Source: Burkholderiaceae bacterium (GTDB taxonomy: Bacteria; Pseudomonadota; Gammaproteobacteria; Burkholderiales; Burkholderiaceae). From it: a stretch of 26,083 bases of DNA. The first letter of the stretch is position 1. Every line of letters begins with the position of its first letter. Location: NCBI GenBank assembly GCA_031538685.1, contig JAVKMA010000357.1, positions 1-26,083 on the forward strand, read 5' to 3'. The notes beneath the pieces were generated by a model that made no database searches, had not been told where the DNA came from, and saw nothing but the letters and a program-made list of their open reading frames with translations. Both the position numbers and the translations under genes were made by a program. Positions 1,140 to 26,083 of the stretch are shown here, piece after piece.

Positions 1140-1176
1140 TCAAAGGGTAAAAATCGGTTTTTACAGCGATTTAAAT

Positions 1177-1192
1177 TGTTTCACATGAAACC
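1177..1192. promoter_or_regulatory. parS centromere-like site (ParB binding)
   Basis: TGTTTCACATGAAACC matches the widespread parS consensus TGTTTCACGTGAAACA at 14/16. Arms GTTTCA/TGAAAC are perfectly inverted. Lies about 0.6 kb upstream of parAB. Confidence 0.8.
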
Positions 1193-1811
1193 ACTATTTA
1201 CACAACTAAGCGCCGCAGATCATTTGACGGCACAAGAAAGCATTGATTTCGAACGTTATTTTGAGTTGTTATTTAAATGGAATTTAACACATAATTTAAC
1301 CGCGATTCTTGATGAAAAAGACGCTTTAATTAAGCATTTAATTGACTGCTTAAGCTTGTTGCCCTTCTTGTCGCAACAAAAAACTTTATTAGATGTTGGG
1401 ACTGGTGCGGGTTTTCCGGGTTTGGTTATTGCGATAATGAATCGTGAAAAAAAAATTACTTTGATTGAAAAATCAGCTAAAAAATGTGCATTTTTAACCG
1501 AGGTAAAAAATCAATTAAAATTGGCCCAGGTTAATGTGGTTTGTGGAGATGTTGCTGTGTGGCGCGCTGGTTTTTTTGATGAAATTACTGCGCGCGCATT
1601 TAGTACACCAGAAAAACTCATCCGTGTGAGCGCTCATTTACTGTCGCCGAATGGGGAGTATTTATTGATGTTAGGTAAAAAACCGGAAAACCTAGCCCGG
1701 TCACTACCGGATGCTTGGACGGTTGTAAAAGAAACGCCGCTGAAAGCTTCAGAATTAATGACAGATCGTTGGATTATTCAAGTTAGTCGAGGAGAGGGAG
1801 AACATGACTGA
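1185..1811 (+). CDS. rsmG: 16S rRNA (guanine(527)-N7)-methyltransferase RsmG (GidB)
   Basis: KWNLTHNLTAI, LDVGTGAGFPG SAM-binding motif, TARAF. Position between mnmG and parA. ATG at 1185 preferred; TTG at 1176 is an alternative start. Confidence 0.95.
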   Translation: MKPLFTQLSAADHLTAQESIDFERYFELLFKWNLTHNLTAILDEKDALIKHLIDCLSLLPFLSQQKTLLDVGTGAGFPGLVIAIMNREKKITLIEKSAKKCAFLTEVKNQLKLAQVNVVCGDVAVWRAGFFDEITARAFSTPEKLIRVSAHLLSPNGEYLLMLGKKPENLARSLPDAWTVVKETPLKASELMTDRWIIQVSRGEGEHD

Positions 1812-2565
1812 AATCGTTTGTGTCGCAAATCAAAAAGGCGGCGTTGGGAAAACAACAACTGCGATTAATTTAGCGGCGAGTCTTGCTCATAAAGGCAAAA
1901 AAATTTTATTGATAGACTTAGACCCTCAAGGTAACGCCACCATGGGGGTCGGGGTTGAAAAAAGCGATCAAGAACAGACGGTGTACCAGGCGTTATTGGG
2001 TATGGTAGATTTAAATGCGGTAGTGAAAAACACCGTAATTCCTAATTTTAAAGTAGTCCCTTCCAATCGAAATTTAGCGGCCGCAGAGTTAGAGCTTGCA
2101 GATTTTGAGCGCCGTGAATATCGCTTAGCCGATGCAATTAAAGCGCTGAAAGAAAATTTTGATTTTATTTTTATTGATTGTCCTCCGGCGTTATCTTTGT
2201 TGACCATCAATGCGTTTTCTGCCGCGAATAGTGTATTGATTCCGATGCAGTGCGAGTATTTTGCGCTAGAAGGATTAACCGATTTAATTGATTCGATTAA
2301 ACGAATTCAAAATCAGTTAAACCCTAATCTAAGGATTTGCGGTTTATTGCGAGTGATGTTCGATCGTCGTGCAAGTTTGTCGCAGCAAGTGTCAGGGCAA
2401 TTAGAAAAACATTTTTATTCGGTCTTATTTAAAACGCTGATTCCTCGGAATATTCGTTTAGCAGAAGCGCCTTCGTTTGGTCAGCCGGCAATTATTTTTG
2501 ATCCGCAAGCTCAAGGGACTTTGGCATATTTAGAGTTGGCAACCGAATTTTTAAAAGCAAAATAA
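1804..2565 (+). CDS. parA: Chromosome partitioning ATPase ParA (Soj)
   Basis: Deviant Walker A NQKGGVGKTTT, IDLDPQGNAT, DCPPALSLLT, QCEYFALEGL, IPRNIRLAEAPSFG. Overlaps the rsmG end by 8 nt. Confidence 0.97.
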   Translation: MTEIVCVANQKGGVGKTTTAINLAASLAHKGKKILLIDLDPQGNATMGVGVEKSDQEQTVYQALLGMVDLNAVVKNTVIPNFKVVPSNRNLAAAELELADFERREYRLADAIKALKENFDFIFIDCPPALSLLTINAFSAANSVLIPMQCEYFALEGLTDLIDSIKRIQNQLNPNLRICGLLRVMFDRRASLSQQVSGQLEKHFYSVLFKTLIPRNIRLAEAPSFGQPAIIFDPQAQGTLAYLELATEFLKAK

Positions 2566-2571
2566 TTGAAT

Positions 2572-3441
2572 ATGGCGAATAAACAGCGAGGATTAGGGCG
2601 GGGGCTTGACGCGCTTTTAGGTGCGCAGACGAGTACGAGCAATCAGCAAAAGATGCTGCAGCTAACTCAATTGGTGCCCGGCAAATATCAGCCACGCGGG
2701 GCGATGGAGGAGCGTGCGCTCAATGAGTTGGCGCAATCCATTAAGCTTCATGGCATCATGCAACCGATTTTAGTTCGCTATCAGGCGGAAGGTTTGTACG
2801 AAATTATCGCCGGGGAGCGGCGTTTTCAAGCGGCAAAACGCGCGGGTTTGGTGGAGGTGCCCGTTTTAGTCAAAGAGGCCGACGATCAAAGCAGTGCAGT
2901 AATGGCCTTGATCGAAAATATTCAAAGGGAAGATTTAAACCCGATTGAAGAAGCGCGCGGAATGACGCGCCTGATAAAGGAGTTTTCGTTGACCCATGAG
3001 CAGGTTGCCGAAGTCTTGGGCAAGTCGCGGACCGCGATTACCAATACTTTGCGCTTGACCAGTTTAGCGCTTGCGGTGCAAGAGTGGTTGATTAAGGGCG
3101 CAATCGAAATGGGGCATGCGCGAGCGCTGATTACCTTGTCATCGGCGGAACAAGTACAGCTGGCGCAAAAAATTATTTTGAATAAATGGTCTGTGCGGCA
3201 AGCGGAACAGCAAGTTAAGGCGCTAAAGTTGGAGCCAGAAAATCTGCCAGCAAGCGAGAAATCAAATCAGCCGATTCAATCTGAAGCGATAAATAATAAT
3301 TTACGGCAACTTGAAGAGCAGTTATCCGATCAATTGGCGGTACAGGTGTCTTTACACGCGAGCAAAAAAGGTTTGACCTTTGCGGCAGAGTTCGTTGATC
3401 AGGCCGCATTAGAACAATTCATAGATCGAATTTTGCGTTAA
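2572..3441 (+). CDS. parB: Chromosome partitioning protein ParB (Spo0J)
   Basis: GLGRGLDALL N-terminal motif, YQPR, QPILVR, YEIIAGERRFQAA (CTP-binding box), ALIENIQREDLNPIEEA, HTH with KSRTAITNTLRL. ATG at 2572. Confidence 0.97.
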   Translation: MANKQRGLGRGLDALLGAQTSTSNQQKMLQLTQLVPGKYQPRGAMEERALNELAQSIKLHGIMQPILVRYQAEGLYEIIAGERRFQAAKRAGLVEVPVLVKEADDQSSAVMALIENIQREDLNPIEEARGMTRLIKEFSLTHEQVAEVLGKSRTAITNTLRLTSLALAVQEWLIKGAIEMGHARALITLSSAEQVQLAQKIILNKWSVRQAEQQVKALKLEPENLPASEKSNQPIQSEAINNNLRQLEEQLSDQLAVQVSLHASKKGLTFAAEFVDQAALEQFIDRILR

Positions 3442-5637: not shown

Positions 5638-6516
5638 TTAGCTTTTCTGTTTCGTTTCCATGTAAATCATCGGAACCAGGACCGCGATTAAGGTTAATAA
5701 CATCATCATGGCAGAGGCCGCGCCCAAACCGAGCTGGCCGCGGTTAAACGAAAATTGATACATAAAGATCGCCGGCACATCTGTTGAGGTTCCAGGGCCG
5801 CCGCCAGTTAGGGCCATGACCAAGTCAAAACTTTTCACGGCAATATGCGCCAAAATCATTGCCACGCTAAAGAAAACCGGACGAATCGAGGGAATAATGA
5901 TGAGCCAATAAATGGTTGGGGCTTTGGCGCCATCAACCTGAGCGGCTTTAAATAATTCAGCATCAACGCCGCGCAGGCCGGCGAGGAACAAGGCCATTGC
6001 AAAACCAGAGGATTGCCACAATCCCGCCAGAACCACGGTATAAATCGCCATATCGGAGTTAACGACCCAATCAAAGCTCGCGTTTTGAAAGCCCCAATCA
6101 TGCAAGACTTTTTCGACACCGATTCCAGGGTTCAGTATCCATTTCCACGCAGTTCCCGTGACGATGAAAGACAGAGCCATGGGGTAGAGGTAAATCGCAC
6201 GTAAAAAGCCTTCAGCGCGAATTTTTTGATCCAACAAAATAGCAAGCAATAGACCAATCGCGCCGGCACCAAAAACGAACAGCAGGCCAAAAATTCCCAG
6301 GTTAGTCCAACTGACCCACCAGCGATCGGTATCAAAAAGTGCAAGGTATTGAACGAATCCGGCCCATTCCCAGCGAGGCAATAAGCGCGATTCGGTAAAA
6401 GACAGCCACGCGGTAATGAGGATAAAGCCGTAAATAAAGATCAGCGCAATGAGTACCGTCGGCGAGATGACCAGTTTGGCTAAAAAATTATCGCCAAATA
6501 ATTTGATACGACTCAT
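5638..6516 (-). CDS. Carbohydrate ABC transporter permease (MalF/GtsB-like)
   Basis: LRAIYLYPMALSFIVTG, EAA-like loop ELFKAAQVDGA, FDLVMALTGGGPG, multiple transmembrane segments. Confidence 0.93.
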   Translation of the reverse strand: MSRIKLFGDNFLAKLVISPTVLIALIFIYGFILITAWLSFTESRLLPRWEWAGFVQYLALFDTDRWWVSWTNLGIFGLLFVFGAGAIGLLLAILLDQKIRAEGFLRAIYLYPMALSFIVTGTAWKWILNPGIGVEKVLHDWGFQNASFDWVVNSDMAIYTVVLAGLWQSSGFAMALFLAGLRGVDAELFKAAQVDGAKAPTIYWLIIIPSIRPVFFSVAMILAHIAVKSFDLVMALTGGGPGTSTDVPAIFMYQFSFNRGQLGLGAASAMMMLLTLIAVLVPMIYMETKQKS

Positions 6517-6845: not shown

Positions 6846-8141
6846 TTATTTTGTTGCGCCTGCTTTAGCAACTGCCGCGGCAGCGTCTTTGCTTTTCATA
6901 TCTGAACTCATGAATTTAGCAACAACGTCAACAATCGCGCCTTGAGTCGCGTTAGGAACCGCCATTCCGTGGGCAAACGAAGGCACTAAACCACCATTGG
7001 ACGATGATTTGCCCATGTCTGCCATCGACAATTTGGCACAATCGTCAAATTTGTCAGTAGGAACGCCAGAAATACGTGCAGGAATCGAACCTTTATTCAA
7101 GTTAAACACTTCTTGAAATTCTGGGCTCATTACGGTTGACGCTAATGCTAACTGAGCTTTTTGAGCGGCAGGGTCTTTTTGTTTAAACATCGCTAAAGAA
7201 TCGATGTTGAACGTGAACGACGTTGCGGTACCAGGAGCTGCGGCGCAGATATAGTCTTTGCCAGGTGCTTTACCGGCGGCAGTGAATTCGCCTTTTGCCC
7301 AGTCGCCCATAAATTGCATACCGGCTTCGCCTTTGATGACCATTGCGGTAGCCAAGTTCCAATCGCGGTTGGCCGCATCTTTATCGATGTAGGTTTTGAG
7401 TTTGGCTAAGGTATCAAATACTTTGACCATCGTTGGCGAGTTCAATGCTTTTGGATCAAGTTTGACCAAAGCGTCTTGAAAGAACTTCGCGCCACCAACA
7501 CCTAACACCACTGATTCAAAAACCGTTGCATCTTGCCAAGGTTGGCTGCCGTGAGCCAAAGGTTGAATTTTGGCTTTTTTGAATTTGTCAGCTAAAGCAA
7601 AGAATTCAGCGTAATTTTTTGGTGCTGTTTTTACGCCAACTTTTTCCATTGCTGCTTTGTTAATCCACAACCAGTTGACGCGGTGCACGTTAACAGGAGC
7701 GGCAACATATTCGCCTTTAAATTTCATGACATCGGCAACGACTTTAGGTAACAAAGTATCCCAATCTTTAGCCGCTTCATTGACGTTTGCTAAAGCGCCT
7801 TCGTTCGCCCATTCTTGAATGGTCGGGCCTTTGATTTGTGCAGCAGCAGGCGCATTGCCCGCAACGACACGTGCTTTCAAAGCAGTCATGGCCGCGTCAC
7901 CGCCACCACCGGCGATCGCAGAATCAACCCAAGTGATGCCCTGTTTTTGCATCATGCTTTTTAATTCGCCGATCGACTTCGCTTCGCCACCTGAAGTCCA
8001 CCAATGTAAAACTTCAACGCTAGGACCCGCGGGTGCTGCTGCGGTAGATGCAGACGCAGATGCGGCTGGAGCAGCTTCTTTTTTACCGCAAGCCGTTAAG
8101 GCCAGTGCCGCAAAAGATGCGACTAATAATATTTTTTTCAT
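6846..8141 (-). CDS. Sugar ABC transporter substrate-binding protein, glucose/mannose-binding GtsA/GltB-like, with lipoprotein signal
   Basis: VEVLHWWTSGGEAK, APVNVHRVNWLW, QPWQDATVFE, MQFMGDWAKGEF, FNLNKGSIPAR resemble Pseudomonas-type glucose-binding proteins. N-terminus MKK-hydrophobic-LTAC lipobox, then an Ala/Ser/Pro linker. Confidence 0.9.
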   Translation of the reverse strand: MKKILLVASFAALALTACGKKEAAPAASASASTAAAPAGPSVEVLHWWTSGGEAKSIGELKSMMQKQGITWVDSAIAGGGGDAAMTALKARVVAGNAPAAAQIKGPTIQEWANEGALANVNEAAKDWDTLLPKVVADVMKFKGEYVAAPVNVHRVNWLWINKAAMEKVGVKTAPKNYAEFFALADKFKKAKIQPLAHGSQPWQDATVFESVVLGVGGAKFFQDALVKLDPKALNSPTMVKVFDTLAKLKTYIDKDAANRDWNLATAMVIKGEAGMQFMGDWAKGEFTAAGKAPGKDYICAAAPGTATSFTFNIDSLAMFKQKDPAAQKAQLALASTVMSPEFQEVFNLNKGSIPARISGVPTDKFDDCAKLSMADMGKSSSNGGLVPSFAHGMAVPNATQGAIVDVVAKFMSSDMKSKDAAAAVAKAGATK

Positions 8142-8407
8142 TTAGAGATCTCCCTTAAAGATAAGAACACAGCGAACAGAAAATTCGCCGCACGGCACTG
8201 AACATGCGCTACTTTTTACGCGGATAAAACTTTTGCGTAATTTGAATTAACACGTTAGCAGTCTTTCGATTTTAGATGATTTTCAGGGCGCGGGTCCAAA
8301 ACGCTACAAAATAAATTTTGTATGGAGGCCTATTCTCGATGTCGAGTTTGAGTCTTTACGATACACGCTGATACACTTCGCTCCTTCATATTTTGATTAT
8401 CGTCATC

Positions 8408-9133
8408 ATGGCAGGGCATTCCAAGTGGGCTAATATTAAGCATAAAAAAGCAGCGACTGATGCAAAGCGCGGACGTATCTGGACTCGTCTTATTAAAGAG
8501 ATTACGGTGGCGGCGCGTATGGGGGGCGCTGATGCGGACAGTAATCCGCGCCTGCGTTTGGCGATGGATCGAGCCGCCGCGTCAAATATGCCCAAAGACA
8601 ATGTTCAACGTGCGATTACACGCGGTCTGGGCGAAGAGGGCGGGGCGAATTTTGAATCGGTGCGTTACGAAGGTTATGGCGCGAATGGCGTGGCCATCAT
8701 CGTTGACTGTTTGACGGATAATCGCACCCGCACCGTGGCAGAAGTTCGGCACGCGTTTTCTAAAAACGGCGGCAATATGGCGACAGAAGGCGCGGTCGCG
8801 TTTCAGTTTACCCACTGTGGACAGTTTTTGTTTGCGCCAACAACAGATGAAGGCGCCTTGATGGACGTCGCTTTGGATGCCGGCGCTGACGATGTGTCTG
8901 GAGATACTGAAGATGGTTTTGAGGTCGTGTGCGCACCGATGGATTTTGCGCGCATTCAGGCGGCGTTAAATGAAAAAAAATTAAGCGCTGAGGTGGCTCA
9001 AATCGTGATGAAGCCGTCGGTAGAAATAGAGTGTAATGCCGAGGACTCTGCCAAAACTCAAAAGTTAATTGATGCTTTGGAAAATTTAGATGATGTACAA
9101 GAGGTCTATTCCAACGCTTTGTTTAGTGAATAA
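8408..9133 (+). CDS. yebC: YebC/PmpR family protein
   Basis: [61 protein letters not shown] at 8408. Confidence 0.97.
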
Positions 9134-9138
9134 ATGGT

Positions 9139-9282
9139 GGGCACTTCTATAAATACAGAATGTGCGGCGAATTGCTTTGTTGCGCAGTACGCGAAATCCT
9201 CACGTACTGTATGTACGTTCCGGTTTCTGAGTGCTGTGCGCCGCGCACTTCATCCGCACATTCTGTATTTATAGAAGTGCCC
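9139..9282 (+). mobile_element. 144-bp variant of the MITE-like element, copy C (both arms of the right-hand type)
   Basis: 9139-9167 is the exact reverse complement of 9254-9282 (29 bp). The core matches the consensus with 2 differences. Confidence 0.9.
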
Positions 9283-9311
9283 TAAAGGGTGTAAAAAATA
9301 TTGTTTCTCTT

Positions 9312-10598
9312 ATGAAAATTCTTGTGGTGGGTAGCGGCGGGCGTGAGCACGCTTTTGCGCATAAATTATCGAGCAGCCCCAATATTCAAGCGGTGCATAT
9401 CGCTCCGGGTAATGGTGGAACCGAGGGCTTTAGTCGTTGGTTAGTCAATGTGCCGCAAACTGACATTCATGCCCTGGCAGATTTTGTCGAGCAGGAGCGA
9501 ATAGATTTTACGGTGGTCGGCCCCGAGGTGCCCCTTGCGGCTGGAATTGTCGACGTCTTTCGTGCGCGCCACTTAAAAATTTTTGGGCCAACGCAAGCCG
9601 CGGCACAACTGGAGTCGTCCAAAGATTTTGCCAAAGCCTTTATGGCCCGTCACAAGATTCCGACGGCGCGTTATCAAACGTTTACTGATGCCGCTTTAGC
9701 GCGTGCGTATGTTGCGCAAGAAGGTGCGCCAATCGTGGTCAAGGCCGACGGCCTAGCGGCAGGAAAAGGGGTCATCGTTGCTCAAACTATTGATGAGGCG
9801 AATCAAGCGATCGATGCGATGTTGGCAGATAACCGCTTGGGCGCTGCGGGTGCGCGAGTGGTGATTGAGCAGTTTATTCAGGGTGTTGAGGTGAGTTTTA
9901 TTGTGATGGCCGATGGCACTAATGTGTTGCCACTTGCCACTTCGCAAGATCACAAGCGCCTATTAAATGACGATATGGGCCCCAATACCGGCGGTATGGG
10001 CGCGTATTCACCAACGCCTTTTGTGACGCCGCCTTTGCATGCGCGAATTTTGCGCGAGATTATTAAACCCGTGATTAAAGGAATGAGCGCCGAAGGCATG
10101 CCTTATAGCGGTTTTTTGTACGCGGGCATCATGATTGATCCAGAGGGTAATCCTTACACTTTGGAGTTCAACTGTCGTTTAGGCGATCCGGAAGCGCAAG
10201 TTATTTTGCCGCGCTTAAAAAGCGATTTGGTGAGCGTTTTACGCAAAGCGTTTGAAGGGCGTTTGGATACGGTTGAGTTGGACTGGGATCGTCGCGTTGC
10301 GGTCGGGGTCGTCATTGCGGCGCCAGGTTATCCTGATGCGCCAGAATTGGGTGGCGAGATCGCTCCTTTGCCCAGAAACACCGATGACAGCTTTATTTAT
10401 CACTCGGGGACGAGGATTAAAGATAATCAATTGCAGGTCTCGGGCGGCCGTGTATTAACCGCGGTGGGCTTGGCGGATACTTTGAAAATGGCGCAAAAAA
10501 ACGCCTATGATTTGGTCGAAGGCATTTTATTTAAAGGCGCGCAGTGGCGCACTGATATTGCCGCTAAAGCAAATAAGGCCGCGCAAAAAAACAATTAG
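9312..10598 (+). CDS. purD: Phosphoribosylamine--glycine ligase PurD
   Basis: MKILVVGSGGREHA, VVGPEVPLAAGIVD, AAQLESSKDFAK, VVKADGLAAGKGV, QDHKR, GPNTGGMGAYSP, LEFNCRLGDPEAQ, GGRVL. True start ATG 9312; the upstream extension is MITE sequence. Confidence 0.97.
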   Translation: MKILVVGSGGREHAFAHKLSSSPNIQAVHIAPGNGGTEGFSRWLVNVPQTDIHALADFVEQERIDFTVVGPEVPLAAGIVDVFRARHLKIFGPTQAAAQLESSKDFAKAFMARHKIPTARYQTFTDAALARAYVAQEGAPIVVKADGLAAGKGVIVAQTIDEANQAIDAMLADNRLGAAGARVVIEQFIQGVEVSFIVMADGTNVLPLATSQDHKRLLNDDMGPNTGGMGAYSPTPFVTPPLHARILREIIKPVIKGMSAEGMPYSGFLYAGIMIDPEGNPYTLEFNCRLGDPEAQVILPRLKSDLVSVLRKAFEGRLDTVELDWDRRVAVGVVIAAPGYPDAPELGGEIAPLPRNTDDSFIYHSGTRIKDNQLQVSGGRVLTAVGLADTLKMAQKNAYDLVEGILFKGAQWRTDIAAKANKAAQKNN

Positions 10599-11643: not shown

Positions 11644-13131
11644 ATGAATTCATGGAGAGAACAAGCACAAAAATTATCGATCGATGGACGCGCGTTTATC
11701 AATGGTAAACGAGTCGCCGCACGGACTGTTTTCGATTGTGTGTCGCCGCGAGATGGGCGCGTTTTGTGTCAGGTGACGCGCGGCGATGCCCGCGATATCA
11801 ACGACGCGGTTGCTGCCGCACGACAAAGCTTTAATCGCGGCGTGTGGTCGCAAATGTCACCGCGCGCGCGTAAAGATGTGCTTATTGCGTTTGCGGGCTT
11901 GATGCGCAGTAACGCGCCAGAACTTGCTTTGTTGGAAAGTTTAGATATGGGTAAGCCGGTCGCGTATAGCCAAAAAATCGACGTTGGTAGCGCCGCGCAT
12001 TGCATCCGCTGGTACGGCGAAGCAATTGATAAATGCTACGATGAAATCGCGCCGACGTCGGCAAACAGTTTAGCGATGATTACTCGCGAACCGATGGGGG
12101 TGGTCGGCGCAATTGTGCCGTGGAATTACCCCATGCTGATGGCGTCGTGGAAAGTCGCCCCTGCTTTGGCGATGGGCAATAGCGTGGTGTTAAAGCCGTC
12201 AGAAAAATCGCCATTAAGCGCGCTGCGTTTGGCCGAATTGGCGATGGAGGCGGGTTTGCCCGAAGGCGTTTTGAATGTTGTTCCAGGGTTTGGTGATGAA
12301 GCGGGTAGTGCTTTGGCGTTACACATGGATGTTGATTGCATTGCCTTTACAGGCTCGACGCGTGTTGGCAAAATGATTACTCAATATGCAGGACAGTCGA
12401 ATTTAAAGCGCGCGTATACGGAGTTGGGCGGCAAGTCGCCATTCATTATTCTTGAGGACGCTGATATCGAGCGCGCGACAGAGTCTTGTGTAGGCTCGAT
12501 TTTCTTTAATCAGGGCGAAAGTTGTAATGCGCCTTCGCGCCTGTTGGTACAGCGCAAACATTACGATTCGGTGTTGGCGCGCGCGGCAGAGCTGGCCAAA
12601 GACTATCAACCGGCAGATCCTTTGGATGACGCTACGGTGATGGGGGCCTTGGTTGATAAAGGGCAGCTGGATACGGTGATGCGCTATATCGAAAGTGGCA
12701 AAAAACAAGGCGCGGCCTTGATCTGTGGCGGCGAGGCGGTGACAATTAACGGCGCCGGATTTTTTGTGCAGCCGACGATTTTTGGTGACGTGCGTCCAGA
12801 AATGACCATTGCCTGTGAAGAAATTTTTGGCCCGGTTTTGTCGGTGATTCCGTTTGATACACCCGCCGATGCGATTGCTTTGGCGAATGACTCGTCATAC
12901 GGTTTGGCGGCGTCGGTGTGGACGCAAAATATCGATTTGGCGCATCAAAGCGCGCGCGCGCTACGTGCGGGAACCGTCCATGTGAATTGCTATGATGAAG
13001 ACGACATTACGGTGCCTTTTGGTGGGTACAAACAGTCTGGCAATGGACGCGATAAATCTTTGCATGCGCTGGAGAAATACAGCGAGTTGAAAACGACCTG
13101 GATTAAATTTCAAGACATGAAAAAATCTTGA
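11644..13131 (+). CDS. NAD(P)-dependent aldehyde dehydrogenase, PuuC-like (gamma-glutamyl-gamma-aminobutyraldehyde dehydrogenase subfamily)
   Basis: PWNYPMLMASWKVAPALAMGN, KPSEKSP, FTGST, ELGGKSP (catalytic Glu), FNQGESCNA (catalytic Cys), EEIFGPV, PFGGYKQSGNGRDKS. RBS-like AGGAAGAG upstream. Substrate is not certain. Confidence 0.9.
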   Translation: MNSWREQAQKLSIDGRAFINGKRVAARTVFDCVSPRDGRVLCQVTRGDARDINDAVAAARQSFNRGVWSQMSPRARKDVLIAFAGLMRSNAPELALLESLDMGKPVAYSQKIDVGSAAHCIRWYGEAIDKCYDEIAPTSANSLAMITREPMGVVGAIVPWNYPMLMASWKVAPALAMGNSVVLKPSEKSPLSALRLAELAMEAGLPEGVLNVVPGFGDEAGSALALHMDVDCIAFTGSTRVGKMITQYAGQSNLKRAYTELGGKSPFIILEDADIERATESCVGSIFFNQGESCNAPSRLLVQRKHYDSVLARAAELAKDYQPADPLDDATVMGALVDKGQLDTVMRYIESGKKQGAALICGGEAVTINGAGFFVQPTIFGDVRPEMTIACEEIFGPVLSVIPFDTPADAIALANDSSYGLAASVWTQNIDLAHQSARALRAGTVHVNCYDEDDITVPFGGYKQSGNGRDKSLHALEKYSELKTTWIKFQDMKKS

Positions 13132-13164
13132 TCAATTTAAAAAACGTAACAGTCAATTTTTAGT

Positions 13165-13205
13165 ACGGCACTTCTGTTTTTACAAAGCAGAGTGCGTGTA
13201 TTTTG
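13165..13205 (+). terminator. Bulged hairpin followed by a T-rich stretch, possible terminator of the aldehyde dehydrogenase gene
   Basis: AC-G-GCAC-T-TCTG-(TTTTTACAAAG)-CAGA-GTGC-GT, followed by GTATTTT. Confidence 0.45.
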
Positions 13206-13238
13206 TGAGTAATATTGCTTGGTTTAAGGACATCGTTA

Positions 13239-14426
13239 ATGAATTTTTTTAGTCCCTGTCCACGAGGCTTGGAGCCCGTTTTAGTTGAAGAGTTGCGTCG
13301 ATTGGGCGCGCAAAAAGTCGAAGAGACTGCCGGAGGTGTCGGATTTCAAGGCGACTGGTCGCTTGTCTATCGCGTCAATTTACATTCGCGCATTGCCAGT
13401 CGTGTTTTACTGGAAGTTGCGCGCGGCGCTTATCGCTCTGAAGACGATATTTATCGTTTTGCTTCGGCGCAAAAATGGGAAGATTGGTTTGAGCCGGATA
13501 CGACTTTTCGCGTCGATACCACGGCGGTACAGACGAATTTAAAAAGTACGGCATTTGTGACTTTGAAAGTCAAGGATGCCGTGTGTGACCGGATGCGTGC
13601 TAAATTTCAATGCCGCCCCGATGTGAATACCTTGAATCCAAAAGTTCGCGTCTCGATTTTTTTATACCGCGAAACAATGATTTTATACATCGACACCTCT
13701 GGTGAGGCCTTATTTAAGCGCGGTTGGCGCATGGAAAAAGGTGATGCGCCCCTGCGTGAAAATTTAGCCGCAGGCTTGTTGGCGCTAGCGGGATGGCGGG
13801 TCGGCACGCCTTTGTTTGATCCGATGTGTGGTTCTGGGACTTTATTGGTCGAAGCTGCGCAACAGTGCTTAGGAATTCCTGCAGGGTCTTTGCGGCACTT
13901 TGGTTTTCAACATTTACGTTTTTATGATCGCGATCAATGGATGGCATGCAAAGCCGAAGTCCCCGCGCCAGACGCAACAAAAACCAATTTGTCTTTATTT
14001 GGCAGCGATATTTCGGGCGATATGGTGACGGTCAGTGCGGACAATTTATTGCGCGCCGGCGTGTCCGCATCAATTCCCTTGAAACAGGTTGAGGCACAAT
14101 TTATCGAAGCGCCCGCAGCTTCGGGCATTATTGTGACCAATCCGCCCTACGGTTCACGCTTGTCAGTGCGCGGCGATGCGACAATGGATACGGATGAGCG
14201 TTACGAGGCTTTTTTCAACGCGCTCGCGACGACATTAAAACAGGGTTTTAGCGGCTGGCAGGTATTTATTTTGTCGGCCGATCGCGACTTGCCGCATTTA
14301 CTGCGCTTGAAAGAGTCGCGCAAAACGCCGATTTTTAACGGTGCGATTGAATGTCGGTTTTTCCGCTTTGATATGGTTGCCGGCGGCAACCGAAAATCGA
14401 CGCCGGTGACGAAGATTCAAGAATAA
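13239..14426 (+). CDS. rlmL: THUMP-domain class I SAM-dependent RNA methyltransferase, RlmL-like (23S rRNA m2G2445; no fused RlmK half)
   Basis: NLHSRIASRVL, KVKDAVCD, DTSGEALFKRGWR, APLRENLAAGLL, DPMCGSGTLLVEAA, GSDI, IVTNPPYG, FNGAIECR. AAGGA RBS at 13226-13230 before ATG 13239. Confidence 0.88.
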   Translation: MNFFSPCPRGLEPVLVEELRRLGAQKVEETAGGVGFQGDWSLVYRVNLHSRIASRVLLEVARGAYRSEDDIYRFASAQKWEDWFEPDTTFRVDTTAVQTNLKSTAFVTLKVKDAVCDRMRAKFQCRPDVNTLNPKVRVSIFLYRETMILYIDTSGEALFKRGWRMEKGDAPLRENLAAGLLALAGWRVGTPLFDPMCGSGTLLVEAAQQCLGIPAGSLRHFGFQHLRFYDRDQWMACKAEVPAPDATKTNLSLFGSDISGDMVTVSADNLLRAGVSASIPLKQVEAQFIEAPAASGIIVTNPPYGSRLSVRGDATMDTDERYEAFFNALATTLKQGFSGWQVFILSADRDLPHLLRLKESRKTPIFNGAIECRFFRFDMVAGGNRKSTPVTKIQE

Positions 14427-18075: not shown

Positions 18076-20142
18076 ATGCCTGTGTTGCAGATTGCTGAGC
18101 CTAATCAAAATAGCGTGCGAAGCGCGCTACTAAATGACGCGCAAAACGGTGCACAAAACGATGCGCAAAACGGGACGCCAAAAAGTGCGTCTGCGCCGCG
18201 TCGTTTGGTGGTTGGTATTGATCTGGGGACAACGCATTCTTTAGTGGCCACCGTGAAAAACGACATTGCGCAAATTCTGCCAGATGCGCAGGGTCGACCA
18301 CTGTTGCCCTCTGTGGTTCATTATGCGACATCGGGAACTCTGGTCGGTTACACCGCGCAAGCCTATTCTGCCAGCGACGCATTGAATACGATTGTTTCGG
18401 TTAAGCGTCTGATGGGGAAAGGTTTTGATGACGTGGCGACTTTGACGCATTTACCGTATCTGTGGGCGCGCGATGGTCAGACTGGTTCGCTTGGTCAGAT
18501 GGGTCAGATCGATGCGACATCAGATTCAAATATCAATACGAAGTCAAATATAAATCCGAAGCGAGTGATCAGCGATCACGACAGCGTGCGGATTCGCACG
18601 CGTGCGGGCGATAAAACACCGATTGAAATCTCCGCTGATATTTTGCGCGTCTTGCGCGATCGCGCCGAACAACAGTGTGGTGACACATTGCATGGCGCGG
18701 TGATTACGGTACCCGCCTATTTTGATGAAGGTCAGCGCCAAGCGACCAAAAATGCGGCGCAATTGGCCGGAATTCATGTATTGCGCTTGTTGAGTGAGCC
18801 GACCGCTGCCGCATTGGCGTATGGTTTGGATCAAGGCATGCAAGGCGTGTATGCGGTCTACGATTTGGGCGGCGGGACGTTTGATATTTCTTTATTGCGT
18901 TTATCCGACGGCGTTTTTGAAGTCGTTGCGACCGGAGGAAATGCGCAATTGGGGGGCGATGATTTTGATCATCGTCTGTATTGTTATTTGATCGAGTGCT
19001 CATCTTTAGCCCCGCCTTCACCGTCGGATGCGCGCCGTTTGATGGCAGAGGCGCGTCGTTGTAAAGAATTGTTATCAACCCATGCCGAAGTTCCCGTAAA
19101 TCTGCTACTGGACAGCGAAGAGCGAGTGCAAACGGTGTTGACGCAAACCTTATTCTGGCAGCTGACCGAAGCCTTAGTGGGCCTGACGGTACAGTCGGTC
19201 AAAGGCGTTTTGCGCGATGGAAGCTTGTCATTAAATGAAATTGACGGGGTAATTTTGGTTGGCGGTGCGACGCGGATGCCCCATGTGCGCCGCGCGGTGG
19301 AGCAGTTTTTTGGGCGGACGGCTTTATGCAGTTTAGACCCCGATCAAGTCGTTGCCTTAGGCGCGGCAAATCAGGCCGCTAAATTGGCGGGACAATTGAT
19401 GGGACAATCGGGGCGCCAAGACAATTGGTTGTTGTTAGATGTGATTCCACTGTCTTTGGGTTTGGAAACAATGGGCGGCTTGGTGGAAAAAATTATTCCA
19501 CGTAATAGTCCGATTCCCTGTGCGTACTCGCAAGAATTTACGACGTATAAAGACGGTCAAACCGCGTTGGCGCTGCATGTGGTGCAAGGCGAACGCGAGT
19601 TGGTTGCTAATTGCCGATCTTTGGCGCGGTTTGAATTGCGCGGCATTCCGCCGATGTTGGCGGGCTTGGCGCGAATTCGCGTCAGTTTTCAAGTCGATGC
19701 GGATGGTTTGTTATCGGTGAGCGCGATCGAGTCGCGATCACAAGTGAGCGCCCAAATCAGCGTCAAACCCAGTTATGGACTGAGCGCCACAGACATCAAT
19801 ACTATGTTGGCGCAAGTGCTGGATTGTGCAGAAGAGGATAAGGCGCAAAAACAATACGCCGAAGCGGCCTTAGATGCGCAAAAAATGATGGACGCGGTGA
19901 ATCGCGCGATCGAGCAAGACGCCAATTTATTATCGGTAGATGAGGATGCGGCGATTTCGCAAAGCCTCGCCCAATTGACTGAAAGTTTGCGGCTTCGTGC
20001 GGCACTACCGCAAGTGCGGGAACACATGCGCCATTTACGGCAGTGCACCGAAGCCTTTGCGCAAAGGCGGATGAATGCGCATGTGCGCAAAGCCCTGACG
20101 GGACAGCACATCGATACCGTCTCGGTGGAGTCGGCGCCGTAA
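18076..20142 (+). CDS. hscA: Fe-S cluster assembly Hsp70 chaperone HscA (with insertions)
   Basis: LQIAEP N-terminus, GIDLGTTHSLVA, VITVPAYFDEGQRQATK, YDLGGGTFDIS, LLLDVIPLSLGLETMGG, QEFTTYKDGQT, RGIPPM, FAQRRMN C-terminus typical of HscA rather than DnaK. Confidence 0.93.
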   Translation: MPVLQIAEPNQNSVRSALLNDAQNGAQNDAQNGTPKSASAPRRLVVGIDLGTTHSLVATVKNDIAQILPDAQGRPLLPSVVHYATSGTLVGYTAQAYSASDALNTIVSVKRLMGKGFDDVATLTHLPYLWARDGQTGSLGQMGQIDATSDSNINTKSNINPKRVISDHDSVRIRTRAGDKTPIEISADILRVLRDRAEQQCGDTLHGAVITVPAYFDEGQRQATKNAAQLAGIHVLRLLSEPTAAALAYGLDQGMQGVYAVYDLGGGTFDISLLRLSDGVFEVVATGGNAQLGGDDFDHRLYCYLIECSSLAPPSPSDARRLMAEARRCKELLSTHAEVPVNLLLDSEERVQTVLTQTLFWQLTEALVGLTVQSVKGVLRDGSLSLNEIDGVILVGGATRMPHVRRAVEQFFGRTALCSLDPDQVVALGAANQAAKLAGQLMGQSGRQDNWLLLDVIPLSLGLETMGGLVEKIIPRNSPIPCAYSQEFTTYKDGQTALALHVVQGERELVANCRSLARFELRGIPPMLAGLARIRVSFQVDADGLLSVSAIESRSQVSAQISVKPSYGLSATDINTMLAQVLDCAEEDKAQKQYAEAALDAQKMMDAVNRAIEQDANLLSVDEDAAISQSLAQLTESLRLRAALPQVREHMRHLRQCTEAFAQRRMNAHVRKALTGQHIDTVSVESAP
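18136..18171 (+). repeat. 12-bp tandem repeat x3 in the hscA N-terminus (DAQN-GAQN-DAQN)
   Basis: GACGCGCAAAAC GGTGCACAAAAC GATGCGCAAAAC. Confidence 0.8.
18493..18561 (+). repeat. 9-bp and 18-bp tandem duplications in an hscA insertion (GQM-GQI; SNINTK-SNINPK)
   Basis: GGTCAGATG GGTCAGATC at 18493-18510; TCAAATATCAATACGAAG TCAAATATAAATCCGAAG at 18526-18561. Confidence 0.8.
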
Positions 20143-21496: not shown

Positions 21497-21639
21497 GGGC
21501 ACTTCTCTCAATACAGAATGTGCGGATGAAGTGCGCGGCGCACAGCACACAGAAACCGAAACGTACATACAGTATGTGAGGATTTCGCGTACTGCGCAAC
21601 AAAGCAATTCGCCGCAAAAATGAATTGATAGAAGTGCCC
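21497..21639 (-). mobile_element. 143-bp MITE-like palindromic element, copy F (inverted relative to A-D)
   Basis: Reverse complement of the consensus with 5 differences. Flanked by direct repeats TAAT (21493-21496 and 21640-21643). Confidence 0.9.
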
Positions 21640-21671: not shown

Positions 21672-22538
21672 ATGAACACAAAGGTGGTTCTAGTGACCGG
21701 TGCAGCACAACGAATCGGCGCGGCGATTGCGCAGCATTGCGCTAATGCCGGATGGCGCGTCGCTCTGCACTACAACCGTTCGGCCGATGCGGCAGAACGC
21801 ACTCGGCAAAGTCTGATTACGCCCGATCAACATGACTGTTTTAGTGCCGATTTTGCAGATGAGGATTCTGATCGCGTCGCCGATAAATTGATTGATGCGG
21901 TGGTGAAAAAAATGGGCCGTATTGATGCGATCGTGAATAATGCATCACTGTTTGCGCACGACAAAGATGGTTTGGCGATTAAATCTGAAGTTAAATCTGC
22001 AACCAAATCTGCAACTGCTGCCGACGCGACGCTTGACGCAGAGCAATACTTTTATCATCCCGCGCTGATCGCCCACATGAAAGTCAATGTGAGTGTGCCG
22101 ATTTTGTTGGCGCAGACTTTGCATCGCCATTTAAGGGCCTTGGATTCAAGCGCTTCAAACACGACAGGTCGCGCTTGTGTGGTGAATTTACTGGACCAAA
22201 AATTGTGGAATCCGAATCCTGATTTTTTAAGTTACTCCTTGAGCAAAGCCGCTCTGCAATATGCGACGACGGTGTTGGCTCAAGCGTTTGCGCCGACGCT
22301 TCGAGTGTGTGCGGTCGCGCCAGGAATGAGTTTGCCCAGTACCTATCAAACCGATAACAATTTTACTCAAGCGCAACAGCATTCGCTATTGGGTTTTGCC
22401 AGCACTCCTCAAGACGTGGCCAAGGCGGTATTGTTTTTGTTAGAGACGCCTTCAGTGACCGGCAGCAGTATTTTGGTCGACGCGGGACAGCATCTGATGC
22501 CCAATCGGCGCGATGTGATGTTTTTGGCGCCGCAATGA
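21672..22538 (+). CDS. SDR-family oxidoreductase, pteridine reductase/FolM-like
   Basis: VLVTGAAQRIG, ALHYNRS, VNNASLF, YSLSK catalytic YxxxK, VCAVAPG, VTGSSILVDAGQHL. RBS-like GAGGAAGG upstream. Confidence 0.88.
   Translation: MNTKVVLVTGAAQRIGAAIAQHCANAGWRVALHYNRSADAAERTRQSLITPDQHDCFSADFADEDSDRVADKLIDAVVKKMGRIDAIVNNASLFAHDKDGLAIKSEVKSATKSATAADATLDAEQYFYHPALIAHMKVNVSVPILLAQTLHRHLRALDSSASNTTGRACVVNLLDQKLWNPNPDFLSYSLSKAALQYATTVLAQAFAPTLRVCAVAPGMSLPSTYQTDNNFTQAQQHSLLGFASTPQDVAKAVLFLLETPSVTGSSILVDAGQHLMPNRRDVMFLAPQ
21981..22016 (+). repeat. 12-bp tandem repeat x3 within the SDR gene (KSEV-KSAT-KSAT)
   Basis: AAATCTGAAGTT AAATCTGCAACC AAATCTGCAACT. Confidence 0.8.
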
Positions 22539-22565: not shown

Positions 22566-25500
22566 ATGGCCAGTTTTACCCCCACCCAACAAGAGTGTTT
22601 TGATGCGGCGCGAGTGCTGATAAGAGACGCCCGCTATCCCGAGGCGCGCGAAATCCTCGAAAAAATATACCAAGAAAAATCGGATCACGACGAACTTACC
22701 CATTTATTGGGGGTCGCTCGTTTCTACGATGGCGCACAAAAAGCCGGAGTTCAGTTAGTCGAAGCGGTACTCAAGCGTATTCCCAATTGGGCTGACGTGC
22801 ACTACAACTTGGGTACGATGTATCAACACATGCATACTGGTCGGGGGGGCAGCGATCTGGCGATTCGCGCATTCGCACAGGCCTACCAATTGGCCATGCG
22901 CCGAATCGATTTGTTATTGAATTACGGGATTGAACTGGCGCGCGATCATCAGTACGCCTTGAGCGAAAGTATTTTTTTTGAAGCGCTGTATCTGGCGAGT
23001 AATGATTTAGAAAAAAGCACCGCGTATAGCAGTTTGAGTTATTTGTATTTTCAGTGGGGTCAGCGAGCAGCCTTGGTGTGTGGTGAAAATGCCGTCAAAT
23101 ACGACGCGAAAGATACGACTGCGTGGATGAATTACGGCAATGCTTTAGTGATGGAGCGCCAGACCGAAAAATCAATTGAGGCTTTTGAAGCGGGCTTGGC
23201 ACTTGATGTGGCGAGTCCATCGCTGAAATTTAATTTGGGCTTGGCGTATTTGATCAAAGGCGATTTTGTTCGTGCATGGCCTTTGTATGAAGCGCGTTGG
23301 CAGGCGATTACCCCTTCGCCAATTCGGCAAGACTTAAGTGCTTCTGAATGGCGCGGCGAAGCGTGTAGCGCCGCTGAGCGCGCCCTGCCGCTACTCATTT
23401 ATTGTGAGCAAGGGTTTGGCGACACGATACAGTTCTTGCGTTTTGTTCCGATGATTGCGGCGTATTGGGGTGGCCCGGTGTGGTTAGAAGTGCAAGGTGA
23501 ATGCTTGGAGGTTTTAGCCAAACTCTGGATCGCCCGCGACTCGGTGGCGCGCGTGATTGTGCGCGGCAATTCAACTGCCGGCGCGGTGCGACAGTGTCCT
23601 TTATTGAGTTTGCCTTTGGTGGCGCAAAATATCGGATTGCCTTCTGTGCCGCCAGATGAACTGGATTTGCCGTATTTTCATGCGCCGCCGATTCAGCAAG
23701 ATGCGCAAAATATTAAAGCGCGTCCGCAAATTGCGTTAACTTGGTCGGGCAGCGCGACACACAGCCGCGACGTGTTTCGTTCCATGCCGCTGGCAAAGTT
23801 ATTGGAGGCCTTGGCGCCCTTGAGCGCGCAGTGTGATTTTGTGAGTGTGCAAAAACCGGTGCGCCCAAGTGATCAACCGGCGTGGCGTCCATGGTTAACA
23901 CCTGCGCCGGCAGATTTGAATACCTTTTATCAGACGGCGCAAATTTTGGCGGACAGTGATTTAGTGATTACCGTGGATACCGCAGTGGCACATTTGGCGG
24001 GCGCGATGGGAAAAAAAGTATTTCTGATCTTGCCCTACGCGCCTGATTGGCGCTGGGGCGATCCGACCTTGGCACCTACGCTGGCGACCCGGTCATATTG
24101 GTACCGCGAAATGGTGCTTTTTCGCGCGCCTGAAATTGGCGATTGGGATTCGACGCTTCAGTCTTTGCGCCGCGCGCTAACCGTTTTTGTCGAGGGTTTT
24201 GTCATGGCTGATCAAAAACCGCTCATGCAAACGCCTGCGCAAAAACCTGCGCAAAAACCCATCGCAACAGCAAGCACAGCAAGCGGCCTCGTGCCAAAAA
24301 CACAAAGCACGCCGCTGTATTCTCCTAAGCAAGATAAGGCGCCGCAGTATTTGAGCGAGTCCGAGACAGCAAGTGACATTTCTTTTGAAGACGCGTTAAA
24401 CCAACTTTTGACACAGGCGCAGGCGGCGATGGGGCAAAATAATTGTATTGAGGCGCTTGCAATTTTGCAACAAGGTTTGGCGCATCCATTCACCGCACAC
24501 GCAGTCAATTGGCAATTGGCGCATGGCAATATTTTGCTGTTATTGCATCGCTATGACGAAGCAGAAACCGCGCTGCATCGCGCCGTGGCCTTGCAATCCA
24601 AGGCTCAACCCGCGTGGCTGTTATTGGGCCAAGTTTTTTGGGCGCAGCGTCTTTATGCCAAAGCGCAAAATGCGTGGATGCAAGCGCAAAGCCTGGCGGC
24701 CTTGGACGACAATTTGGCGGCGCGTTTGGCGGAAGCAGCATTTTATGCACATGATTACGCTTTTGCGGCGACCCAATATGAGTTGATCTTGACGCGAAAA
24801 CATTTATTCACGCCCGAACAGTGTGCGAGGGCCTGGCAAAGTCAGGGGGTGTGTTATGCGTTTTTAAACGACCTTGACGCGGCGAAAAAATGTTATCAAA
24901 AAGCGCTCTCGATTCAACCGAATTATTCGCGCGCGCAATTTAATTTAGCCGCGGCATATTTGATTCAAGGTGATTACGCCCAAGCTTGGCCGTTGTACGA
25001 AGCGCGCCTGTTATTAGATGACGGCAAAAAAGCGCCTCTTGATCTGCCCGAATGGCGAGGCGAGCGCAACTTGGCGGGACAATGCTTGTTGATTGATGCT
25101 GAGCAAGGCTTGGGCGACGCTGTTTTTGCCGCGCGCTTCTTGAGTGTTTTATTAAAGCAGGACATCACTTTGGTGCTGTGGGTTACCGAATCGCTGCGCG
25201 AATTGTTTCATTATTTGAATATCGCCAAAGCACTGCGCGCTCGATTGCATGTGGTGACGACTTTGGAAGACGCGTTACAGTTTGTACCGGTCGCGCGTTG
25301 TCCGATGATGTCTTTGCCCTACGCGCAAAAAACGACGGAAGAGACGATTCCGGCGGCCGGCGGCTATTTGAAAATGGCCAGTTCAGTTGAGGCAATTCTG
25401 GGTAAGAAAAAATCAAGTGCACCAAAAAAACGCGCGGCCTTGATTTGGCGCGGGCGCGCTGAAAATAAAAATGATGCGATTCGTTCGATACCTTTGAGTG

Positions 25501-25922
25501 AATGGCGCGATCTTGTTGCCGCTTTACATAGCGCGCATTATGAGTGTCACTCTTTAAACCTTGACCCATCAAAGGATGAGCAGGCACTGATGACGCAGTG
25601 GGGAATGATTGACGGCACGGCGGGAGTTGATTCTGTGGCGGCAATGGCGCAAATGATTTCGGAGAGCGCCTTAGTGATTACGGTCGACACTTTGCACGCG
25701 CACCTCGCCGGTGCTTTGGGGGTGCGGACGTGGGTGTTGTTACCGCACTTTCCTGATTGGCGTTGGCAACAAAATCGCAATGATAGCCCGTGGTATCGTA
25801 GCCTGTATTTGTGGCGTCAGTCGGTTCGGGCGCAGTGGGCGCCGGTGTTTACACAAATCATCGATAGAATCAAACAGGACAGTCGCAAACCGTCCAAAGC
25901 GGGGTTGCGTAAAAAGAAATAA
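22566..25922 (+). CDS. Tandem (two-module) TPR-containing GT-B glycosyltransferase-like protein
   Basis: Two copies of TPR helices followed by (F/L)NL(G/A)xAYLIxGD(F/Y)xxAWPLYEAR, EQG(F/L)GD, LVITVDTxxAHLAGA(M/L)G and PxxPDWRW, joined by a low-complexity linker. Confidence 0.88.
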   Translation: MASFTPTQQECFDAARVLIRDARYPEAREILEKIYQEKSDHDELTHLLGVARFYDGAQKAGVQLVEAVLKRIPNWADVHYNLGTMYQHMHTGRGGSDLAIRAFAQAYQLAMRRIDLLLNYGIELARDHQYALSESIFFEALYLASNDLEKSTAYSSLSYLYFQWGQRAALVCGENAVKYDAKDTTAWMNYGNALVMERQTEKSIEAFEAGLALDVASPSLKFNLGLAYLIKGDFVRAWPLYEARWQAITPSPIRQDLSASEWRGEACSAAERALPLLIYCEQGFGDTIQFLRFVPMIAAYWGGPVWLEVQGECLEVLAKLWIARDSVARVIVRGNSTAGAVRQCPLLSLPLVAQNIGLPSVPPDELDLPYFHAPPIQQDAQNIKARPQIALTWSGSATHSRDVFRSMPLAKLLEALAPLSAQCDFVSVQKPVRPSDQPAWRPWLTPAPADLNTFYQTAQILADSDLVITVDTAVAHLAGAMGKKVFLILPYAPDWRWGDPTLAPTLATRSYWYREMVLFRAPEIGDWDSTLQSLRRALTVFVEGFVMADQKPLMQTPAQKPAQKPIATASTASGLVPKTQSTPLYSPKQDKAPQYLSESETASDISFEDALNQLLTQAQAAMGQNNCIEALAILQQGLAHPFTAHAVNWQLAHGNILLLLHRYDEAETALHRAVALQSKAQPAWLLLGQVFWAQRLYAKAQNAWMQAQSLAALDDNLAARLAEAAFYAHDYAFAATQYELILTRKHLFTPEQCARAWQSQGVCYAFLNDLDAAKKCYQKALSIQPNYSRAQFNLAAAYLIQGDYAQAWPLYEARLLLDDGKKAPLDLPEWRGERNLAGQCLLIDAEQGLGDAVFAARFLSVLLKQDITLVLWVTESLRELFHYLNIAKALRARLHVVTTLEDALQFVPVARCPMMSLPYAQKTTEETIPAAGGYLKMASSVEAILGKKKSSAPKKRAALIWRGRAENKNDAIRSIPLSEWRDLVAALHSAHYECHSLNLDPSKDEQALMTQWGMIDGTAGVDSVAAMAQMISESALVITVDTLHAHLAGALGVRTWVLLPHFPDWRWQQNRNDSPWYRSLYLWRQSVRAQWAPVFTQIIDRIKQDSRKPSKAGLRKKK
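24228..24284 (+). repeat. 12-bp x3 and 9-bp x2 tandem repeats in the linker of the TPR-glycosyltransferase
   Basis: CAAACGCCTGCG CAAAAACCTGCG CAAAAACCCATC at 24228-24263; ACAGCAAGC ACAGCAAGC at 24267-24284. Confidence 0.8.
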
Positions 25923-26044: not shown

Positions 26045-26083
26045 ATGAAAAAAATTATTTCATGTGCGCTGGCACAAGGTAAT
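26045..26083 (+). CDS. Possible start of a gene running off the window (MKKIISCALAQGN...)
   Basis: ATG followed by an open frame to the window edge with an MKK start. Only 13 codons are visible. Confidence 0.3.
   Translation, partial: MKKIISCALAQGN

Follow-up and report, generated by a model that had tools for sequence, protein, structure and literature searches.

In Caulobacter crescentus and Brevundimonas subvibrioides, flagellin is O-glycosylated by FlmG (formerly FlbA), an enzyme that needs pseudaminic acid (Pse) or legionaminic acid (Leg). It is a 596-residue protein with a tetratricopeptide repeat (TPR) domain that binds flagellin and selects the acceptor (PMC7591256), which agrees with what the sequence-only reading of the present locus had stated, and a glycosyltransferase (GT) domain of the GT-B fold that sets the Pse versus Leg donor specificity (bioRxiv 10.1101/2022.03.25.485807). 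Here we describe a gene at positions 22566..25922 (+ strand) of a 26,083-nucleotide stretch of a Burkholderiaceae bacterium (contig JAVKMA010000357.1; the whole stretch is hereafter the window), the 1118-residue product of which carries two TPR + GT-B modules in tandem. Like FlmG, each module has an N-terminal TPR arm and a C-terminal GT-B domain, the protein is soluble and cytoplasmic, and the junction motif GWxxYEAR and the N-lobe motif EQGLGD are shared; unlike FlmG, it has two modules rather than one.

Three further systems resemble parts of this architecture. The canonical GT9 lipopolysaccharide (LPS) heptosyltransferases are single-domain enzymes without a TPR arm that act on lipid A-Kdo (Kdo, 3-deoxy-D-manno-octulosonate) at the membrane. 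TibC/AAH (4rap) are GT9-fold enzymes that O-glycosylate proteins in the cytoplasm with ADP-heptose; they also lack a TPR arm, form an iron-containing dodecamer and are encoded beside their autotransporter substrate, whereas no autotransporter gene lies in the window. The O-GlcNAc transferase (OGT) and SPINDLY proteins of family GT41 share with the present protein a TPR superhelix feeding a GT-B domain.

Architecture and fold of the two modules

The reading frame at 22566..25922 is intact over 1118 open codons, and the open frame, Pfam matches and an orthologue together define a soluble double TPR-GT9-like protein (P0001). The gene is confirmed as real because the sister species (genome G082) has a 92%-identical 1119-aa orthologue of the double-headed gene. 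Module 1 consists of a TPR arm of ~7 helix pairs (residues 1-245; 22566..23300) and a GT9-like GT-B catalytic domain (residues 246-548; 23301..24209; structural matches over model residues 255-547), followed by a 49-residue linker rich in P, Q, K, A, T and S (residues 549-597; 24210..24356), which lies outside both modelled modules and tethers the two. Module 2 likewise comprises a TPR arm of ~6 helix pairs (residues 598-812; 24357..25001), with Pfam TPR_1/TPR_2 matches at 754-787, and a GT9-like GT-B domain (residues 813-1100; 25002..25865; structural matches over model residues 236-513). All these features are on the + strand. Neither a signal peptide nor a membrane helix was found in the protein, with a maximal Kyte-Doolittle 19-residue mean of 1.49, in agreement with the sequence-only reading, which had seen no signal peptide.

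That reading had also described two complete, diverged modules, each retaining EQGxGD, VITVDT..AHLAGA and PDWRW, and motif searches located all three in both. The EQG.GD motif starts at residues 281 and 846, as EQGFGD in module 1 (residues 281-286; 23406..23423) and EQGLGD in module 2 (residues 846-851; 25101..25118), and its aspartates D286 and D851, in a column invariant among 75 family sequences, are the presumed catalytic bases. The putative donor-site motif VITVDT..AHLAGA starts at residues 467 and 1037, reading VITVDTAVAHLAGA in module 1 (residues 467-480; 23964..24005) and VITVDTLHAHLAGA in module 2 (residues 1037-1050; 25674..25715). PDWRW follows at residues 493-497 (24042..24056) and at 1063-1067 (25752..25766); in both modules its R and W (R496 and W497 in module 1) do not vary across the family. 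Two more motifs are common to both modules, AYLIxGD[FY]xxAWPLYEAR at residues 227 and 797 and EWRGE at residues 261 and 829. Aligned against each other, the two halves are 31% identical over 349 residues (E = 1e-36), and within the family alignment A1 the GT parts are 30% identical, compared to only 20% for the TPR arms.

At the sequence level, membership of PF01075 (GT9) appears marginal. Besides many TPR families, Pfam returned PF01075 Glyco_transf_9 at 33 bits, above the cut-off of 22, in a match that spans only 32 residues of module 1 (454-485) and encloses the donor-site motif. NCBIfam models gave weak similarity to heptosyltransferases I and III in both halves, with an E-value of 4e-4 for heptosyltransferase III in module 2. 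When alignment A1 was compared by hhalign with the genome's own LPS heptosyltransferase, the D-T/S-x-x-x-H donor motif alone was aligned, VITVDTLHAHLAGA of module 2 being paired with VLANDSGLMHCAAAL over a short stretch and at a probability of only 15%. Searched against the PDB as a single sequence, the GT domain of module 2 gave no meaningful match (the best was IMP dehydrogenase at an E-value of 0.29), and the profile search with A1 was swamped by TPR proteins.

We then modelled each module separately with AlphaFold2 (AF2), using the 75-sequence alignments A1 and A2. The resulting models have a mean predicted local distance difference test score (pLDDT) of 92.1 and a predicted template modelling score (pTM) of 0.91 for module 1 (m796d664c83bb), and 90.9 and 0.89, respectively, for module 2 (m92e4a2e9713e). 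Each consists of 12-14 TPR-type helices followed by two Rossmann-like lobes. The TPR arm of module 1 (helices H8-H247, pLDDT mostly >95) matches TPR structures at Z-scores of 17-18.6, and that of module 2 spans helices H10-H219 of its model.

Structural similarity search with VIA, which is independent of Foldseek and in which alone the GT9 relation emerged, showed that the catalytic domains of modules 2 and 1 most resemble a GT9 enzyme of Veillonella (3tov; Z-scores of 17.8 and 16.7, respectively), the heptosyltransferases WaaF (1psw; 17.6 and 16.1) and WaaC (2h1f; 17.5 and 16.1), and TibC (16.8 and 17.0), the last being the top GT match of module 1. The GT9 superpositions of both domains cover 234-255 aligned residues with a root-mean-square deviation (rmsd) of 3.1-3.5 Å and a sequence identity of 9-15%. 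Thus, the predicted GT-B fold of both heads is nearest to solved GT9 enzymes. By contrast, whole-module Foldseek searches were dominated by TPR, SPINDLY and OGT matches with template modelling (TM) scores of 0.2-0.36 and an rmsd above 12 Å; SPINDLY and OGT rank at the top because of the TPR arm and the common TPR + GT-B layout. As the catalytic domains match GT9 better than GT41, and no GT41 family is found among the Pfam matches at E<=0.1 in the 1118-aa protein, membership of GT41 was rejected and the Foldseek likeness regarded as architectural only. Two observations on related folds stand apart from this comparison. A chain of the Arabidopsis chloroplast NAD(P)H dehydrogenase-photosystem I (NDH-PSI) supercomplex (7wff_a) matches both GT domains at Z-scores of 14.8-16.1 and may represent a GT9-like fold in a non-enzymatic role, and the ESM Atlas holds clusters of GT-domain-only look-alikes of ~280-310 aa, reported partly from phages (Uroviricota).

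In the model of module 1, EQGFGD sits in the loop after the first β-strand (E276-279) and before helix H284-301, which would correspond to where GT9 enzymes have their G-D loop. Superposition of module 2 on WaaC starts at model residue 242, equivalent to WaaC residue 1, and the EQGLGD aspartate is model residue 254. D851 is therefore presumed to lie next to WaaC Asp13, an assignment made from the register of the superposition. WaaC Asp13 is the residue that we take to be catalytic.

Both modules keep all 21 columns that are invariant in the 75-sequence alignments A1 and A2 (R, W, EQGxGD, R, P, WxG, R, D....HL, RW, WY and LxR). Among the 123 columns conserved at 80% or more, 85 are kept in module 2 and 82 in module 1. 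Comparison with the orthologue of the sister species gave ratios of nonsynonymous to synonymous substitution rates (dN/dS) of 0.12 and 0.13 for the TPR and GT parts of module 1, and 0.14 and 0.09 for those of module 2, so that both heads are under purifying selection (dN/dS 0.09-0.14); the linker, at 0.29, is the fastest-evolving part of the protein. With the invariant columns kept, the models confident and dN/dS low, neither head looks degenerate, and we infer that both are active. The loss of the GT-B fold or of conserved donor-binding residues from one module, which the sequence-only reading had named as fatal to a two-headed enzyme, was thus seen in neither.

The family, the place of FlmG and the origin of two heads

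The tandem design belongs to a very large family. Searching with module 2 retrieved 1396 proteins at E<=1e-5 (best 2e-80), and the whole protein retrieved 1755 of 614-1957 aa, the best 120 of which, judged by motif counts, include 74 triple-, 34 double- and 8 quadruple-headed forms. The best matches are from betaproteobacteria. When a GT-domain hidden Markov model (HMM) was run on 254 collected proteins, 117 proved single, 33 double, 97 triple and 7 quadruple. With the 290-aa GT domain as query, an exhaustive search reached 22,731 cluster representatives at E<=1e-10, and 31,438 when the threshold was relaxed to E<=0.001; the best 150 all have 2-7 matched stretches, in proteins of up to 3140 aa. 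Since both the GT-domain and the whole-protein searches are full of multi-headed forms, the tandem architecture is common. The sequence-only reading had asked whether the design might be both common and already characterized; the former was borne out but not the latter, as literature searches for TPR combined with GT9 or heptosyltransferase found no study characterizing the main clade or the tandem design. The gene is therefore a further member of a very large, known and uncharacterized family annotated as "TPR repeat-containing glycosyltransferase", and not a new kind of enzyme.

FlmG itself was located in this family by synteny rather than by name. Weak homologues of 607-632 aa from Caulobacterales adjoin flbT, flaF and three tandem flagellin genes; one of these flagellin-linked proteins (L089:9467-11293) aligns with both modules at E-values of 1e-5 to 1e-12 and gives a full-length match of 131.7 bits to the GT-domain HMM of the family. 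The FlmG-like proteins are 23-26% identical to the window modules (BLASTP E-values of 1e-10 to 1e-14). Closer Caulobacterales homologues, of 33-36% identity, are not near flagellin genes. Where the window protein has VDTxxAHLAGA, the FlmG-like proteins read GFxNATxNLAGACG; PDWRW is missing from them, and they do not match PF01075. Because these C-lobe motifs differ while the GT-domain homology spans the full length, FlmG is placed in a diverged side clade whose donor lobe was remodelled, and the window protein belongs, as judged from sequence, to a GT9-like main clade.

The genomic setting differs as well. FlmG lies beside the flbT-flaF-flagellin genes, whereas flagellin (PF00669), FlhA (PF00771) and the NeuB-family synthase (PF03102) gave no match in either of two genomes of the genus, namely the window's own genome (G000; 1.72 Mb, 397 contigs, 85% complete) and that of the sister species (G082; 2.0 Mb, 98% complete). 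The assignment to the FlmG class made by the sequence-only reading therefore holds for homology and for the TPR + GT-B layout, but not for the clade, the C-lobe motifs or the flagellar and nonulosonic acid context.

A tree of GT domains was rooted on the FlmG-like clade. In it, the two heads with their orthologues come out as sister groups (support 0.745), and the sister of this pair consists of both heads of a second double-headed paralogue, of 1119 aa (support 0.876). The latter is encoded on contig C6 of the sister genome (L100:8202-11561), with exbB/exbD on one side and a transglutaminase-like gene on the other, and the two GT domains of this paralogue are most closely related to each other. 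A similar pattern recurs across the family: in 91 of 137 multi-module proteins, the protein's own GT domains all fall into one small clade and are often exclusively monophyletic. Because of this clustering, heads seem to multiply by repeated internal duplication, or to be homogenized, rather than to arise by fusion of old specialized enzymes, a view for which support is moderate and in which shared composition could play a part. The two heads of the window protein would accordingly represent, with moderate confidence, a lineage-specific internal duplication of the kind that recurs across the family.

We further surveyed the neighbours of family members at 80 loci, which represent diverse phyla. 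At five loci a flagellin gene is no more than 8 kb away from a family member, NDP-sugar epimerase/dehydratase genes (NDP, nucleoside diphosphate) occur at four, and DegT aminotransferases at three. At one of the five flagellin loci, from a Candidatus Neomarinimicrobiota metagenome-assembled genome (MAG; L032:5648-13902), a 1239-aa double-headed member (6861-10580) has flagellin genes on both sides (5648-6481 and 13060-13902) and is likely a two-headed flagellin glycosyltransferase; single-module members sit beside flagellin genes at L044, L072 and L077. L077 is of the Oxalobacteraceae/Massilia type, as is L074, where a main-clade member also adjoins flagellin. Because of these flagellin, epimerase/dehydratase and DegT neighbours, the survey supports, as one role of the main clade, a glycosylation of proteins that draws on ordinary nucleotide sugars and is partly directed at flagellin. 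For most of the surveyed members, the window gene included, there is no link to a flagellin or nucleotide-sugar gene, and in related Burkholderiales genomes family members lie away from flagellin genes.

Some loci are remarkable for their own sake. A related genome of the order Burkholderiales carries four family members within 9 kb (G105:C1:837481-845947). Microcoleus and related cyanobacteria encode members of 3264-3293 aa, each preceded by an S-adenosylmethionine (SAM) methyltransferase gene (L012:2352-12182, L031:2058-11939 and L059:3789-13583), and the first of these loci also has a UbiA prenyltransferase gene.

Proposed function and alternative explanations

Altogether, we lean towards the view that the gene product glycosylates proteins in the cytoplasm, its two heads relying on similar nucleotide-sugar chemistry, possibly with ADP-heptose, and acting on different non-flagellar acceptors or sites. 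Each TPR superhelix would presumably bind an acceptor, as in the distant relative FlmG, while the GT9-type GT-B domain would bind the nucleotide sugar via its GT9-like D-T-x-x-x-H-L-A motif and the aspartate of the EQGxGD loop would act as the base in the transfer. The heads, probably derived from internal duplication, would be tethered by the flexible linker and both kept by selection. Of two donors, two acceptors or sequential glycan extension, which the sequence-only reading had left side by side, two donors fit less well: heads that are closest relatives, with similar catalytic domains and diverged TPR arms, point to the same chemistry on different acceptors, and delivery of a similar sugar to two different acceptor proteins or sites would be the most likely arrangement.

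The genome content bears on both substrates. The acceptor is predicted not to be flagellin, because the genus has no flagellar genes, and the donor is predicted not to be a nonulosonic acid. The ADP-heptose 6-epimerase HldD is present at 410 bits and scores above its cut-off in both genomes, which suggests that the cell can make ADP-heptose; this sugar is one plausible donor. That the acceptor is a protein, and which donor and acceptor are used, we infer from these comparisons. The sequence-only reading had proposed to look for Pse/Leg pathways, flagellins and pilins; the first two drew a blank with NeuB and flagellin, whereas seven pilin-like N-methyl proteins are encoded in both genomes, none of them on contigs with TPR-GT genes.

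Several observations weigh against this view of the protein. No gene for an acceptor or donor is linked to it, the neighbours being rodA, a short-chain dehydrogenase/reductase (SDR) gene and nadE, and the paralogues in the sister genome also lie among unrelated housekeeping genes (exbBD, transglutaminase-like, fabF-like, polyprenyl synthase and holA/lptE). There is likewise no universal neighbour across the 80 loci, and flagellin accompanies only five. The catalytic aspartate is assigned by its position in a predicted model, not by experiment; the sister-group support of the two heads is moderate and could be inflated by the shared composition of one genome; and in the literature searched, no member of the main clade had been tested biochemically.

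The most serious competitor is an acceptor that is not a protein, such as the LPS core, a glycolipid or a polysaccharide, with the TPR arms serving as scaffolds or oligomerization surfaces. The nearest solved folds are indeed the LPS heptosyltransferases WaaC and WaaF, the GT9 donor motif is kept, the genome makes ADP-heptose, and no protein-substrate gene is linked; moreover, a capsule-polymerizing multienzyme among the Foldseek matches (8qoy) also has TPR domains. However, both genomes already encode two canonical GT9 LPS heptosyltransferases elsewhere, the protein is soluble and has no membrane anchor, the only characterized relative, FlmG, binds a protein through its TPR arm, and family members recur beside flagellin genes, so that we regard a non-protein acceptor as unlikely, if worth keeping in mind. 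Less room is left for a protein with a single catalytic head, the other being degenerate, regulatory or binding-only. Such a pseudoenzyme might be suspected from the 31% identity of the modules and from the loss, in each, of about a third of the family columns conserved at 80% or more, but it is improbable given that both heads retain the 21 invariant residues, including EQGxGD, D..HL, RW and WY, as well as a complete high-confidence GT-B domain and a low GT dN/dS (0.13 and 0.09).

Two further explanations assign the enzyme to quite different settings. If the bacterium were host-associated and its genome reduced, the protein might be exported as an effector to glycosylate host proteins, which would suit the small genome (~2 Mb) and the occurrence of family members in MAGs of Chlamydiales, Dependentiae and Rickettsiales; yet free-living bacteria of soil and water have the family in equal abundance, the protein has no signal peptide and the two genomes no FlhA-type type III secretion export gate, the gene lies among housekeeping genes, and nothing indicates host association of the organism, all of which makes this explanation highly improbable. 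A FlmG-type flagellin O-glycosyltransferase adding Pse or Leg is suggested by the same TPR + GT-B layout and by the GWxxYEAR and EQGxGD motifs common with the synteny-defined FlmG of Caulobacterales. However, identity to the FlmG-like proteins is low, the VDTxxAHLAGA and PDWRW motifs kept by both heads are missing from them, and PF00669, PF00771 and PF03102 are without a match in either genome of the genus; this job is thus very unlikely here and close to refuted.

Returning to the cytoplasmic protein glycosyltransferase, the paralogues invite a broader, speculative proposal. The TPR-GT paralogues of the genus include at least two double-headed ones of 1119 aa and two with a single head, the sister genome encoding, besides the second double-headed one, single-headed paralogues of 501 aa and 597 aa. 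In this non-flagellated betaproteobacterium with its small genome, they might constitute a general cytoplasmic protein O-glycosylation system of conserved multi-headed TPR-GT9 enzymes, possibly adding heptose, in which each TPR arm is directed to its own non-flagellar substrate, such as pilins or envelope proteins, and heads were multiplied by internal duplication to widen the substrate range, although we hold this to be doubtful.

The value of these findings lies in the family rather than in the single gene, as the window locus itself offers no contextual handle on the substrate. There are tens of thousands of TPR-GT9-like proteins, many with 2-6 heads, and FlmG, the only characterized relative identified, stands in a side clade that has diverged and differs in its donor site. 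That purifying selection maintains a double-headed member in a ~2-Mb genome without flagella points to important non-flagellar work of the family, and the repeated duplication of entire modules within proteins hints at how new acceptor specificities might evolve by a simple route. To know the substrates of any one main-clade member would open up much new ground in bacterial protein glycosylation.

Genomic neighbourhood of the gene

The window otherwise encodes housekeeping functions, including mnmG, rsmG, parAB, purD, lon, ruvA, dnaK and rodA. The co-directional upstream neighbour (21672..22538, + strand; Pfam adh_short) is a pteridine-reductase-like SDR oxidoreductase, the best NCBIfam matches of which, PRK09134 and pteridine reductase, are both below their cut-offs; a role as a sugar-nucleotide enzyme was rejected in view of this resemblance. 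Downstream, the start of the NAD synthetase gene nadE (26045..26083, + strand) is cut by the contig end, where the window closes with MKKIISCALAQGN; in the sister species, MKKILSCALAQCN... starts a CN_hydrolase + NAD_synthase open reading frame downstream of the orthologue. The order SDR - TPR-GT gene - nadE is the same in the sister species, as seen on its 5.9-kb contig.

Upstream of the SDR/TPR-GT pair, a 143-bp copy of a miniature inverted-repeat transposable element (MITE) lies between rodA and the SDR gene (21497-21639). The DnaK frame (18076-20142) is 688 aa long as called, compared to 678-682 aa in its cluster relatives, and of the two stretches in it that match Hsp70 in Pfam, the best-scoring one does not begin before residue 149; the start codon or an N-terminal extension could merit inspection. 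Finally, since mnmG, rsmG, parA and parB stand at the beginning of the window (3-3441), the contig probably comes from the vicinity of the replication origin of the chromosome.

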